A DNA stretch of 40,850 nt from Candidatus Woesearchaeota archaeon (GTDB lineage: Archaea > Nanobdellota > Nanobdellia > Pacearchaeales > GW2011-AR1): contig CAZWNN010000002.1 of assembly GCA_964635935.1 (NCBI GenBank), positions 1 through 40,850 on the forward strand, given 5' to 3'. The notes beneath the pieces are model-generated. The model was not told the DNA's origin. It saw only the letters and a program-made list of their open reading frames with translations, and searched no databases. Below, piece by piece: positions 4,253 through 38,677 of this stretch. The translations under genes were made by a program, and so were the position numbers. Position 1 is the stretch's first letter, and each line of letters opens with the position of its first letter.

Positions 4253-4585
4253 TTATCTTGTAAAAATCTCACATAATTTTTCTTCAACTTGTTTTATTTT
4301 TTCTTGATTTAGTTTTCCTGCTTTGTAGCTAATTCTTGATTTATGAATTGTGAACAAGATAGAGGGTCTAATAAAACTATCACGATTTATTCCTCCAGAT
4401 TGAAAATCTTTAGATTTTAGTTCTAATAAATCTTGATCAGGTCGAGGTTGTCCGGTAATTTGGGCAAGAATAACATGTCTTCCTTTTGAATTTGCTACAA
4501 CTAAACTTGGTCTTTTTTTAGAAAGATATTTATCTGAAAATGGGAATTGGAAGATTACAACTTCACCTTTTACAAATCCTTCCAT
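4253..4585 (-). CDS. mazF: MazF/PemK-family type II toxin (endoribonuclease)
   Basis: GEVVIFQFPFSD....KKRPSLVV...ILAQITG pattern typical of PemK/MazF. 16-nt overlap with the upstream antitoxin ORF. Confidence 0.75.
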   Translation of the reverse strand: MEGFVKGEVVIFQFPFSDKYLSKKRPSLVVANSKGRHVILAQITGQPRPDQDLLELKSKDFQSGGINRDSFIRPSILFTIHKSRISYKAGKLNQEKIKQVEEKLCEIFTR

Positions 4586-35887: not shown

Positions 35888-36931
35888 TTATTTAATTGAG
35901 TTATTTATCTTAATTACAAGATTTTTCCTTAATTTAAAAGTATTTGCCCATTTTGCATAAGCTTGCCATCCTTGATAACTTTCTAGAATTTTTTCTTTAT
36001 CTATTATTTGACTTCTAAACAAATTAAGTTTGTTTTCCATATTCTTAATGTTTCTTCTTCTTAATAATTTGAAATAATAAAAAATTCTAAAACCGACAAA
36101 ATCAATTCCTTTTGATAATGGAATAATGCGTGATTTCTGTGGGTGAAGTTCTAATTTTAAATTCTCTTTTAGAAATTTGTTTATTTGTTTTTTCCAAATT
36201 TGTAATTGTTCTTTTGATTTATGAAGAAGAATAAAGTCATCAACATAACGTATATAGTATTTTACTTTTAATTTATGTTTGACAAAATAATCTAACTCAT
36301 TGAGATAGAGGTTAGCGAAGAATTGGCTTGTTAAATTTCCTAAGGGCATTCCTTTTTCTTTATATCCATTTTCAAGTATCTTCTTTATTAACCAAATAAC
36401 TTTTTTATCTTTTATTTTTCTTTTAATTATGTTTAACAAAATTTCATGATTTACTTCCTGGAAATAGTGCTTGATATCTGCTTTTAAGCAATAACCTTTT
36501 ATTTGATTATTATTAAACCAGCCATTTAATTTGCCATTTCTTGAAATTTTTTTCATAAACTTATAAAATCTTTTTAAAGCAAATAGATTACCTTTTCCTA
36601 TTCTATTTGCACATGAATCATAAATAAATCTTTTATCAAAAATTGGTTCAAGGATTCTTATTAAAGCATGATGAACAATTCTGTCTCTAAAAGCAGACTT
36701 ACTTATTTTTCGTGTTTTTGGATCTCTTAAAATAAATGTTTTTAGTGGTTTAGGAGAATAAGTCAAGTTTTTTAATTCGTATTGCAATTTCAATAGATTT
36801 TTATACAGATTAGCTTCAAACTCAAGAACATAATTTTTCTTAGTTTTTCCTTTTCGTGCTTTTTTCCATGCAAAGGTTAGATTATCTAAGGAGATAATTT
36901 TATTGTATAAATTTTTATAAGATTTCATCAT
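35888..36931 (-). CDS. DGR-type reverse transcriptase
   Basis: RT motifs include IRYVDDFILL (YVDD) and PLGNLTSQFFANLYLNELD (the I/LGxxxSQ signature of DGR RTs). The TR sits 21 nt upstream of the ATG. Confidence 0.9.
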   Translation of the reverse strand: MMKSYKNLYNKIISLDNLTFAWKKARKGKTKKNYVLEFEANLYKNLLKLQYELKNLTYSPKPLKTFILRDPKTRKISKSAFRDRIVHHALIRILEPIFDKRFIYDSCANRIGKGNLFALKRFYKFMKKISRNGKLNGWFNNNQIKGYCLKADIKHYFQEVNHEILLNIIKRKIKDKKVIWLIKKILENGYKEKGMPLGNLTSQFFANLYLNELDYFVKHKLKVKYYIRYVDDFILLHKSKEQLQIWKKQINKFLKENLKLELHPQKSRIIPLSKGIDFVGFRIFYYFKLLRRRNIKNMENKLNLFRSQIIDKEKILESYQGWQAYAKWANTFKLRKNLVIKINNSIK

Positions 36932-36952
36932 AAGTGTCTTGTGAACTAAGGC

Positions 36953-37035
36953 TATTCCGAAAGCATGACCGTTCCTGTTATCATCATGGTAGTTGCCATT
37001 GACATTAAGCCTGTCGTTGTAGTCGTTGAGCGCGG
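36953..37035 (-). repeat. DGR template repeat (TR)
   Basis: Non-coding copy of the VRs. The sense strand reads ..GCGCTCAACGACTACAACGACAGGCTTAATGTCAATGGCAACTACCATGATGATAACAGGAACGGTCATGCTTTCGGAATA, with 7 AAY codons in the VR frame. Confidence 0.9.
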
Positions 37036-37206
37036 CCAGACATGTAGTCTATTAATTTAAAGTAAATCACCAAAGTTTCAAGTTTCATTTTCATTACTAT
37101 TTGTCACTTTTGAATTTTATGGCTTTTTTAAAAAGCACTATTAACAGACATGTAGCCTTAGTTCATTGGAGAGTGCCTCCCTAAGACAAATTATTAGAAA
37201 AAAGGT

Positions 37207-37235
37207 TATTTATAAACTTAACTTAAAAAAATTTG
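37207..37235 (-). promoter_or_regulatory. Candidate promoter for the TR-RT transcript
   Basis: The minus strand reads CCACAAATTTTTTTAAGTTAAGTTTATAAATA: a CACAA box plus TATA-like boxes, upstream of the 5' arm of the TR-enclosing helix. Confidence 0.3.
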
Positions 37236-37236
37236 T

Positions 37237-37251
37237 GGTGCCTTCGGCACC
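37237..37251 (-). promoter_or_regulatory. GC-rich hairpin 6 nt downstream of VR1 (candidate DGR target-recognition element)
   Basis: GGTGCC-TTC-GGCACC (sense strand GGTGCC-GAA-GGCACC). The TR lacks an equivalent. Confidence 0.6.
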
Positions 37252-37254
37252 TAA

Positions 37255-37965
37255 TTATACCCCGAAAGCATGACCGCCCCAGTCATCAACACGGCAGTCG
37301 CCACCGACACAAAGCCCGCCGTAGTAGCCGTCGAGCGCGGTTACTCTTTGAACAGGAGATTTTCCTTCTTGAATATCTAACCCCCATGTTTTTGGTGGAT
37401 CTTTAAACTCTTCTGAAACTTCTGCTAATCTTTCTGCACCTTCTTGTCCAAAACTTGCAACAACAAATCCATCTTTTGCTAAGGATTCTTTAGTGTGTTC
37501 TCCTATTGAATAACTTCCCTTAGGGGCAAATCTTATGGTTCCATCAGAACTATATAAAATAGGGCTTCCTGCAGGACTTTCACTTAATTTTCTTTCTAAA
37601 TCTTCTTGATCTAAGGGCTGACTTACTCCTATTGCTTCTGGGTCTGATACAACATAAACACCTTTTGAAGTCCATAAATTCTGGTCAAAACTCCATAGCC
37701 ATCTATTTTTCATAATTAAATCTCTGATTTTTGTGATTTCTTCTCTTTCCTTGAAGTCTTCAGGGCCGCAATATGCAGCATGAAGGAGATATGCTGTTTG
37801 TTCTGCAATTGGGAGTGTTAATCCTCTTGCTAAAATTCCTTTTCCTACTGTTGGATAATTATGTGGACCTTGTGAAGGATGAACAAAGATAATGTTTCCA
37901 TCTCTTCCAGGAACTTCTATTTCAGTTCTTCCTCTCCTTACTTCATAAGTTTTTGCTTCTTCCAT
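37255..37965 (-). CDS. DGR target protein 1 (VR at extreme C-terminus)
   Basis: 236 aa, ends ..TALDGYYGGLCVGGDCRVDDWGGHAFGV*. Paralog of 37967..38677. No N-terminal signal or TM. Confidence 0.85.
   Translation of the reverse strand: MEEAKTYEVRRGRTEIEVPGRDGNIIFVHPSQGPHNYPTVGKGILARGLTLPIAEQTAYLLHAAYCGPEDFKEREEITKIRDLIMKNRWLWSFDQNLWTSKGVYVVSDPEAIGVSQPLDQEDLERKLSESPAGSPILYSSDGTIRFAPKGSYSIGEHTKESLAKDGFVVASFGQEGAERLAEVSEEFKDPPKTWGLDIQEGKSPVQRVTALDGYYGGLCVGGDCRVDDWGGHAFGV
37258..37340 (-). repeat. DGR variable repeat VR1
   Basis: 79-nt core 37262..37340 versus TR 36957..37035: 17 differences, all at TR plus-strand T (sense-strand A). Confidence 0.9.
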
Positions 37966-37966
37966 T

Positions 37967-38677
37967 TTATCTTTTTTCTCTCTCAGATTCAGCGCGACTG
38001 GCTTCGCCAGTTTTCAATACCCCGAAAGCATGACCGTTCCTGCTACCACCACGGTAGCTGCCATCGACACCAAGCCCGTCGCCGTAGCCGTCGAGCGCGG
38101 TATATCTCTTATCCTTTACTTCTGAATGATCTACTCCATGAATATAAGTCTCCTTCTTGTCAACAGCTTTAGCAACTTTTTCAACAATAGGGAGCATATC
38201 CTCTCCTCCAACCTGAGCCACTAAATAAGGATTTTTTAAAAGATCTGAAATTGGCATGTATCTTGTTTTAAATCCTAGCTTAACAAGTCTTACTCTTTTA
38301 TCTCCAACCTCAATTAATTTAAGCAATCCAACACTATCTGAAGGCATAGTTCCATCAATATCATCATAAACAAGAACTCCTCCAGGGAATGCTGTGCTTC
38401 TTGTAGAGGTCCATAAGTAATCATCTCTGAAGATTCTTAATAAATCAGCAAAACCTGGTTCATCTTCATTTTGAAGAGCTATATTTAATAAAGAAAATGT
38501 TTGGGCGGTTGTAGGTCTTAATAATCCTTGAGAATCAATTTCTCCCATAACCTTTGGGTAATTGTTTGGACCGACTAAGGGTGTAACAAAGGTTACAATC
38601 TCGCCTCTGTGAGGAATATCGATTTCAGTTCTTGCTATTCTTATTTTTCCTCCGCCCTCTAAGGCTCTTGTTTCCAT
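37967..38677 (-). CDS. DGR target protein 2 (VR followed by a 16-aa tail)
   Basis: 236 aa, ..TALDGYGDGLGVDGSYRGGSRNGHAFGVLKTGEASRAESEREKR*. The stop lies 1 nt before the target1 ATG. Confidence 0.85.
   Translation of the reverse strand: METRALEGGGKIRIARTEIDIPHRGEIVTFVTPLVGPNNYPKVMGEIDSQGLLRPTTAQTFSLLNIALQNEDEPGFADLLRIFRDDYLWTSTRSTAFPGGVLVYDDIDGTMPSDSVGLLKLIEVGDKRVRLVKLGFKTRYMPISDLLKNPYLVAQVGGEDMLPIVEKVAKAVDKKETYIHGVDHSEVKDKRYTALDGYGDGLGVDGSYRGGSRNGHAFGVLKTGEASRAESEREKR
37997..38011 (-). promoter_or_regulatory. GC-rich hairpin 6 nt downstream of VR2 (inside the coding tail)
   Basis: ACTGGC-TTC-GCCAGT. Same loop and same 6-nt spacing from the VR end as the VR1 hairpin. Confidence 0.6.
38018..38100 (-). 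repeat. DGR variable repeat VR2
   Basis: 79-nt core 38022..38100 versus TR: 13 differences, all at TR sense-strand A (all A->G). Confidence 0.9.

Follow-up and report, generated by a model that had tools for sequence, protein, structure and literature searches.

One of the closest systems that have been described is the diversity-generating retroelement (DGR) of Bordetella phage BPP-1, the RNA of which (RF03022 Phage_DGR, formerly RT-10) is seen in the cryogenic electron microscopy structures 8ub7-8ube. In this ribonucleoprotein (RNP), the template repeat (TR) and the spacer region (Sp), which follow the avd 3' end in that order, form a template:primer duplex of 10 pairs that ends at the priming nucleotide A56. 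It is followed by two linker nucleotides and then by the 11-bp avd:Sp duplex ('cPRT Stop'), the avd strand of which lies a few nucleotides 5' of the TR (bioRxiv 10.1101/2023.10.23.563531). Further parts of the RNP are a small stem-loop, a thumb ring that is single-stranded, a stem that carries two interior loops and binds the Bordetella reverse transcriptase (bRT), and an Avd-binding stem-loop directly after the TR (bioRxiv 10.1101/2023.10.23.563531). Stop-type duplexes with a mean length of 13 bp have been predicted in 207 of 278 Avd-containing DGRs (bioRxiv 10.1101/2023.10.23.563531). In this work, we describe a DGR of a DPANN archaeon in which a conserved 13-bp long-range RNA helix closes a loop that contains the TR. 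The DGR is located on the minus strand of a stretch of 40,850 nucleotides (Candidatus Woesearchaeota archaeon, assembly GCA_964635935.1, contig CAZWNN010000002.1, positions 1 to 40,850) that is referred to as the window, and all features below are on that strand.

Avd is present in about 74% of DGRs and is not obligatory. Cassettes that consist of a TR and a reverse transcriptase (RT) without Avd are a known class, Architecture A, that accounts for 29% of DGRs (Wu et al. 2018, PMC5758913). Profile searches for avd elsewhere in the genomes of Avd-less DGRs also failed (PMC5758913), and how these DGRs, about a quarter of those known, manage to prime and delimit reverse transcription has yet to be explained (PMC5758913). 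The RNA families RT-1 to RT-19 were found next to RT genes, where only RT-10 was tied to a DGR and RT-16 was given no function (Weinberg et al. 2017, PMC5737381). Passages of Paul et al. 2015 (PMC4372165) on the DGRs of Nanoarchaeota (DUSEL4) report the initiation of mutagenic homing sequence (IMH) as TGGGGT and its counterpart IMH* as TGGAAT, with GRA-loop hairpins after the variable repeat (VR); those passages make no mention of RNA structure around the TR or of a long-range helix.

A conserved helix around the template repeat

The 5' arm of the helix is strand b, UGAACUAAGGCUA (37153..37165), which ends in the invariant A37153 of a CUA/CCA motif. The 3' arm is strand b', UAGCCUUAGUUCA (36942..36954). 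Both arms are exact reverse complements over 13 nt, as an earlier interpretation of this DNA (the sequence-only reading) had claimed, and 198 nt separate them. The first two bases of strand b' are the last two bases common to the TR and the VR (UA, 36954..36953), and the strand ends 10 nt before the RT ATG (36931), which is 21 nt from the TR end; both distances agree with that reading. The longest perfect stem in 1000 dinucleotide-preserving shuffles of 37200..36900 was 12 bp (five cases), and 13 bp was never reached. Folding of the RNA, which had been proposed as a check, placed the helix in both the minimum free energy (MFE) and the centroid structures, and the full RNA gives it a mean pair probability of 0.98.

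A second long-range helix of 6 bp (a:a', 37188..37183 with 36940..36935) extends the b:b' helix. Its strand a, UGUCUU (37183..37188), overlaps the 5' strand of the Rfam helix P1 and pairs in the MFE structure with strand a', AAGACA (36935..36940), which ends 3 nt before the RT ATG. Strands b' and a' occupy the whole interval that separates the TR from the RT, where there is no room for a stem-loop.

The conservation of the helix was assessed among 100 fetched loci that encode relatives of the RT. The RT-16 RNA, which is discussed in the next section, is located directly upstream of the RT in 40 of the 100 loci with a TR-sized gap of 93-174 nt between them. A set of 37 loci was anchored without any use of complementarity, by the junction CUA/CCA on one side and, on the other, by the AAU[AG]G nearest upstream of the start codon. 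This rule mis-anchors L040, L047, and L060 and gives no anchor for L055; all were left unchanged, so the statistics are conservative. A plain CTACA search upstream of the RTs was dropped because it is too strict for a motif that is C[UC]ACA[CU]G, and it was replaced by Rfam coordinates and a degenerate pattern. The C[UC]ACA[CU]G junction is present in all 37 anchored loci.

Positions 1-8 of b:b' in the anchored, ungapped alignment pair in 84-100% of these loci. At position 2, 26 loci have U-A and the other 11 have C-G without exception, positions 4, 6, 7, and 8 also change pair type, and changes on both sides are found in 9 of the 12 pairs. The closing A-U pair at the position of A37153 is present in 37/37 loci, and the template base that precedes it is A. 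The paired cells of the alignment amount to 79.3% compared to 66.6% in shuffles, and the covariation score is 0.484 compared to 0.263; none of the 500 shuffles reached the observed value for either. Pairing falls to 21-47% when the partner is slid by 1-3 columns. The first eight positions contain 32 G-U pairs and only 6 A-C pairs, which indicates a structure of the sense RNA.

Cognate upstream and downstream segments of the 37 loci form duplexes at an average of -20.2 kcal/mol compared to -12.2 kcal/mol for non-cognate segments (permutation p<=5e-5). The b:b', a:a', and a:a* pairings (the last is Rfam P1, in which strand a pairs with the 3' part of b) are each cognate-specific (p<=5e-5 for a:a'). 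A local hairpin of b' with a' in the downstream segment was considered and rejected, as it is not locus-specific (p=0.40). When RNAalifold was run on 25 full-length RNAs aligned by MAFFT without anchors, it recovered b:b' with nine pairs, seven of them compensatory, as well as P2 with 11 pairs and the core stem; Rfam P1 was not recovered. At least six of the first eight b:b' pairs are present in the full-length MFE structures of 25 of the 37 loci, and the mean pair probability in the full-length folds is 0.68 for b:b' compared to 0.03 for local pairing of b. The helix length across loci is 8-13 bp, and the distance from the helix end to the RT start in relatives is 6-38 nt, with a' in between.

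One related locus (L003:187-1900) has its RT on the opposite strand, convergent with RT-16 and the TR. Its RT-16 and TR are followed by UAACCCG, which pairs with CGGGUUA and exhibits a C-G to U-A change at a position that is invariant elsewhere. This is followed by CAGGAC (a'), which pairs with the RNA 5' end, and then by a U-run. Since this locus keeps the helix without a downstream RT open reading frame (ORF), the helix belongs to the RNA and not to the RT start codon. These findings bear out the covariation check that the sequence-only reading had proposed. The helix is a real, RNA-level structure that is conserved with covariation and closes the TR-containing loop. Two further observations concern individual relatives. 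The RT ORF of L003 is 469 aa long with a C-terminal extension. The long-range helix of L006, which is on an Aenigmatarchaeota contig, has an internal loop, and a 12-G run just upstream of its RT-16 (L006:1757-1768) is possibly an assembly artefact.

The RT-16 RNA and the template boundaries

The sequence-only reading had treated the 215 nt upstream of the TR as a spacer with no sizeable ORF. This spacer is not empty, as the region is the Rfam RF03019 RT-16 RNA and carries the elements that this reading expected downstream of the TR. The match is full-length (37039..37186, model positions 1-158) and scores 102 bits with the covariance model against a gathering score of 50. The same reading had found no ORF longer than about 14 codons there. 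A 29-codon ATG ORF is in fact present on the transcript strand at 37094..37005, and the part of the claim that concerns Avd holds, since no ORF there has the size of Avd (110-130 aa).

The small insert hairpin GGAG-GCACU-CUCC (37168..37180) is located between strands a and b in the MFE structure and is variable among relatives. Strand b is followed by the 3-nt linker CAU (37150..37152), which is CAY in all relatives, and then by the P2 5' strand, GUCUGUUAAU (37140..37149), which pairs with the P2 3' strand, AUUAAUAGAC (37047..37056). P2 is 10-11 bp long in nearly all 37 loci with compensatory changes and is separated from the 5' arm by the 3-nt CAY linker. The segment that P2 encloses consists of a small local stem-loop, GCUUUU-UA-AAAAGC (37123..37136, MFE fold), a conserved single-stranded stretch, CAUAAAAUUCA (37111..37121), and a stem with two interior loops (37072..37110). 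Local hairpins like the first of these were seen by eye in L003, L008, and L009. The stretch CAUAAAAUUCA is unpaired and conserved in the RT-16 model and resembles AAuACA of the Bordetella thumb-ring segment. One of the two interior loops of the stem is of the sarcin-ricin type (AGUA, 37098..37095, and GAA, 37086..37084), and we propose this stem as the RT-binding element by analogy with Bordetella. JAR3D has assigned sarcin-ricin-type loops to both RT-10/Phage_DGR and RT-16 (PMC13085918). An 11-nt tail, UACAUGUCUGG (37046..37036), leads from the P2 3' strand to the TR. The 11-nt direct repeat CTACATGTCTG that had been noticed from the sequence is indeed present at 37155..37145 and 37047..37037, and it is a longer version, in the window, of the two (G)CUAYA motifs that are conserved on either side of P2.

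The P2 helix, the core, and two CUAC motifs of the RF03019 model are all present in the window. However, the model stops before the TR, contains no long-range pairing, and includes a P1 that competes with the window helix. The 5' arm corresponds in the model to the P1 3' strand and the first three bases (CUA) of the conserved junction CUACAYG. P1 is a 14-bp hairpin in the model; eight of these pairs have become non-canonical in the window, where only UCUUAG/CUAAGG is left. The complementarity of P1 is locus-specific in relatives, yet P1 loses to the long-range helix in folding, and it is mutually exclusive with both long-range helices. New in this work are the association of RT-16 with a DGR template, two long-range helices that are lacking in the Rfam model, and a permuted order that puts the long-range helix at the proposed priming end of the TR.

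A relative from Omnitrophota (L010) has the Rfam RT-14 RNA downstream of its RT (L010:1493-1649). The 3' half of RT-14 weakly matches the sarcin-ricin stem of the window (37120..37070, E 0.85), which hints at an RT-binding module shared among several RT-associated Rfam families.

The TR (36953..37035) has an IMH*-like 3' end (..CGGAAUA). The VR of target gene 1 differs from the TR at 13 adenines and the VR of target gene 2 at 17 adenines, with no mismatch at any other base in either. Both VRs of the window have GGGGUA where the TR 3' end has GGAAUA, which is the IMH/IMH* difference. A VR was found in 24 related loci, on which the boundary results rest, and the adenine-only mismatch pattern is seen in these loci too. 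The TR/VR homology ends at ..GAA|UA in all 24, exactly where the 3' arm begins, and it starts 8-13 nt after the P2 3' strand; the AA of this TR end is GG in the VR. With an adenine-directed TR/VR pair, an RT of the DGR clade that adjoins the TR, the IMH/IMH* pair, and a post-VR hairpin, the cassette is a DGR. Four related loci (L031, L043, L056, and L037) carry an AU-rich palindromic insertion of about 28 nt in the TR, e.g. AAAUUUUGUAUUAAAAAUACAAAACGAG (alignment A5, columns 361-390), placed after the adenine-rich part and before the IMH*-like 3' end. None of these loci yielded a VR in an ungapped search, which for L037 could cover only 199 nt upstream.

A proposed permuted priming model and its rivals

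The explanation towards which we lean, with modest confidence, takes the helix as a conserved structural part of the non-coding RNA that belongs to an Avd-less DGR of DPANN archaea and that would prime reverse transcription in a permuted arrangement. The RNA would probably start near 37188, with a TATA-like box some 25 nt upstream, and would contain in order strand a, the small hairpin, strand b, CAU, P2 enclosing the RT-16 core, the 11-nt tail, the TR, b', a', and the RT ORF. The 13-bp b:b' and the 6-bp a:a' helices close a loop that holds the RT-16 core and the TR, and this closure brings the upstream RT-16 domain to the TR 3' end. The window RNA would then be the Bordetella phage DGR RNA in a circularly permuted order. 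The 13-bp helix would be its template:primer duplex, A37153 the priming nucleotide and counterpart of Sp A56, and the conserved A just 5' of b' the first template base. P2 would serve as the stop duplex in place of the avd:Sp 'cPRT Stop', and no Avd-binding element would be needed. Rfam P1 might, more speculatively, be a transient local hairpin that hides the primer strand before b' and a' are transcribed.

We assign the template:primer role to the helix because of its position, its conservation, and the Bordetella analogy. The helix lies directly 3' of what would be the first templated base, and its strand b ends in A and is followed by CAY and P2. Extended to the whole Avd-less DPANN clade (more than 7000 RT homologues), the proposal is more tentative, and we would put it at somewhat below an even chance that the clade has a permuted DGR RNA in which RT-16 is the Sp-equivalent, the 2'-OH of A37153 primes without Avd, and P1 is the off-state.

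The helix might instead, at a clearly lower probability, be a clamp or a stop, the counterpart of the Bordetella 'cPRT Stop', that shuts the TR loop and gives the RNP its organisation, with priming from another nucleotide or from a primer in trans. In Bordetella, the duplex that joins the sequence upstream of the TR to the sequence downstream of it is the stop duplex, such duplexes average 13 bp, and the long-range duplex here is b:b' with its 8-13 bp. However, a stop belongs at the 5' side of the TR. Strand b, which is upstream, is separated from the TR 5' end by 117 nt and by the 10-11-bp P2, so the 13-bp helix does not have a strand a few nucleotides 5' of the TR. P2 does, as its 3' strand ends 8-13 nt before the TR with a spacing like that of the Bordetella stop duplex. 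Strand b' abuts the TR 3' end without a spacer in every locus, and the TR 3' flank has no other conserved pairing partner and no room for one before the RT ATG. The passive clamp that the sequence-only reading had in mind, like a stop, is unlikely because the 3' arm abuts the TR 3' end, where cDNA (complementary DNA) synthesis must begin. A regulatory role is less probable still, although it could coexist with template:primer pairing. Pairing of the RNA 5' end near the RT start would in that case control RT translation or protect the ends, with P1 as the 'translation-on' state. The position of a', 3 nt before the ATG in the window and between the b:b' helix and the RT start codon in relatives, would suit such a role, and so would the AGGA-like (Shine-Dalgarno-like) sequence in many a' strands, the (U)CCU with which strand a begins, and the existence of two mutually exclusive, locus-specific pairings. 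However, L003 keeps b:b' and a:a' with no RT ORF downstream, the window and the CUAAGA subgroup have no Shine-Dalgarno-like a', and the distance to the start codon varies widely.

We consider it very improbable that the local P1 is the sole functional fold and that the downstream complement is a by-product such as a degenerate copy of P1. This explanation draws on the presence of P1 in the curated RT-16 model and on the locus-specific a:a* complementarity. However, more than half of the P1 pairs are non-canonical in the window, where the long-range helix is perfect, and long-range pairing is better than P1 by 10.7 kcal/mol on average and dominates the ensembles. The long-range helix also tolerates G-U but not A-C, extends into CUA:UAG outside P1, and is the one that RNAalifold picks. 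In an AT-rich region with many imperfect inverted repeats nearby, one might suspect that the inverted repeat arose by chance or acts at the DNA level, as a cruciform or a recombination site would. This is refuted for practical purposes by the absence of 13-bp stems from the shuffles, by the compensatory changes in all 37 anchored loci (and, by eye, in L003), and by the strand asymmetry of G-U over A-C, which favours RNA over DNA.

Several points weigh against the template:primer interpretation and its permuted RNA. The overall fold z-score is only -1.7. The locus-specific a:a* pairing is left unexplained by the permuted model alone. The priming nucleotide, the cDNA ends, and the transcript ends are all inferred. 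At the two adenines that would be the first to be copied (36956..36955), every VR has GG, which fits IMH/IMH* and gives no positive sign of copying. The template strand of the Bordetella primer duplex is inside the TR (117-129), whereas that of the window is almost wholly outside the TR/VR homology. RF03022 gave no match to 37030..37200 even at E<=10, so no sequence homology to that family is detectable and the basis of the Bordetella correspondence is order and architecture. Since Avd proteins are poorly conserved and the contig spans only 40.8 kb, a distant or divergent Avd may exist.

The archaeal cassette compared with known systems

The minus-strand order of the cassette is two tandem 236-aa target genes, a 218-nt non-coding stretch, the TR, 21 nt, and the 347-aa RT (35888..36931) with LGNLTSQ and YVDD motifs. 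The best PDB match of the RT is Bordetella bRT 8ub7_A (E 5.9e-43) with an end-to-end alignment. The RT homologues are named Pacearchaeota, Woesearchaeota or Nanoarchaeota, and the neighbours of the DGR in a Pfam scan of the window ORFs are the cellular genes RNase J, Mre11/Rad50-like, RadA, and ScpB. The cassette is therefore a chromosomal DGR of a DPANN archaeon. Target gene 1 (37967..38677) contains its VR at 38100..38018, and target gene 2 (37255..37965) contains its VR at 37340..37258. Neither of the two target proteins has a Pfam match, and the targets of related cassettes, of about 236-266 aa, fall into at least three BLAST families. A GC-rich GAA-loop hairpin is located downstream of each VR, namely CTGGCGAAGCCAG (38010..37998), which is inside the target gene 1 ORF and 17 codons before its end, and the terminator-like GGTGCCGAAGGCACC with a T-run (37251..37237) after the target gene 2 stop codon.

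The TATA-like box TTTATAAATA (37207..37216), about 21-30 nt upstream of the RT-16 5' end, is a putative archaeal promoter for transcription of the DGR RNA. The upstream sequence was long enough in 35 loci, most of which exhibit, by eye, a TATA-like box some 31 to 23 nt before the 5' end of RT-16 (about -31 to -23), and 27 of the 35 matches of a strict TATA pattern cluster at -31..-27. These positions suggest a transcription start at strand a. Two other genes were noted in the window. A small-domain, HemK/PrmC-like methyltransferase (PF05175, 35374..35886) starts 2 nt after the RT stop codon and is probably a host gene, since it is not conserved beside related cassettes. A MazF/PemK-type toxin ORF (PF02452, E 4.9e-13, 4253..4585) is far from the DGR.

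The claim of the sequence-only reading that no Avd is encoded nearby stands, at the level of sequence-based detection, for the window and for the surroundings of the 40 related cassettes. No Pfam match to Avd (PF05635 or other Avd-like) was found in 20 window ORFs. The same is true of 35 small ORFs that flank relatives and seven window ORFs that were rescanned, which matched unrelated host genes only. BLASTP clustering of ORFs of at least 60 aa in the 40 loci gave only the RT and target families and no conserved accessory ORF. The flanks of related cassettes are unrelated host genes.

The cassette resembles Architecture A1 (TR-RT) of Wu et al. 2018 in its TR-RT core without an accessory gene. 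That work proposes that an Avd-independent mechanism exists but gives no RNA architecture (PMC5758913). According to passages of Paul et al. 2015 (PMC4372165), the DUSEL4 DGRs share with the window a DPANN host, small target proteins, the IMH/IMH* pair, and hairpins after the VR, at least one of which is within the target ORF. However, the same passages note ORFs of Avd-like size and charge between the RT and the target gene.

The findings in this work would give a function to the orphan Rfam family RT-16 and they add conserved long-range pairing to its picture. They also offer a model of Avd-independent priming in a very abundant archaeal clade that can be tested by mutation. A 347-aa RT with an RNA of about 260 nt and no accessory protein is a candidate minimal system for targeted mutagenesis tools.

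The window is similar to Bordetella BPP-1 in an RT that is homologous end to end and in a TR that is in a loop closed by a long-range duplex. The enclosure of the TR, which the sequence-only reading took as a different DGR architecture, is normal for DGRs, as the Bordetella phage RNA has such a duplex. Both RNAs, when compared by eye and for architecture only, exhibit a duplex of about 10 bp that ends in an adenosine, a linker of 2-3 nt, and an 11-bp duplex whose other strand is found some 8-11 nt 5' of the TR. In both, there follow a small stem-loop, a single strand rich in A, and a stem that has two interior loops, of which one is of the sarcin-ricin type. The Bordetella RNA elements can be located in sequence through the Rfam alignment of RF03022 to BPP-1. 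Strand b with its terminal invariant A would correspond to the primer strand Sp 47-56 ending in A56, and the CAY linker to the 2-nt linker. P2, with 10-11 bp and its other strand about 11 nt 5' of the TR, would correspond to the 11-bp avd:Sp stop duplex. The small stem-loops of both RNAs would match each other, the conserved AUAAAAUUCA would match the single-stranded thumb ring, and the stem with a 2-nt interior loop and the AGUA/GAA loop would match the bRT-binding stem. However, the Sp-like elements of the window precede the TR, and the window has neither a detectable Avd gene nor an Avd-binding stem-loop. Its long-range duplex is at the TR 3' end, in a primer-type position, whereas P2, at the TR 5' end, is a locally closed duplex. 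This comparison suggests that the core of the DGR RNP, that is, the primer duplex, the linker, the stop duplex, and the RT-binding stem, has been kept despite the permuted order.

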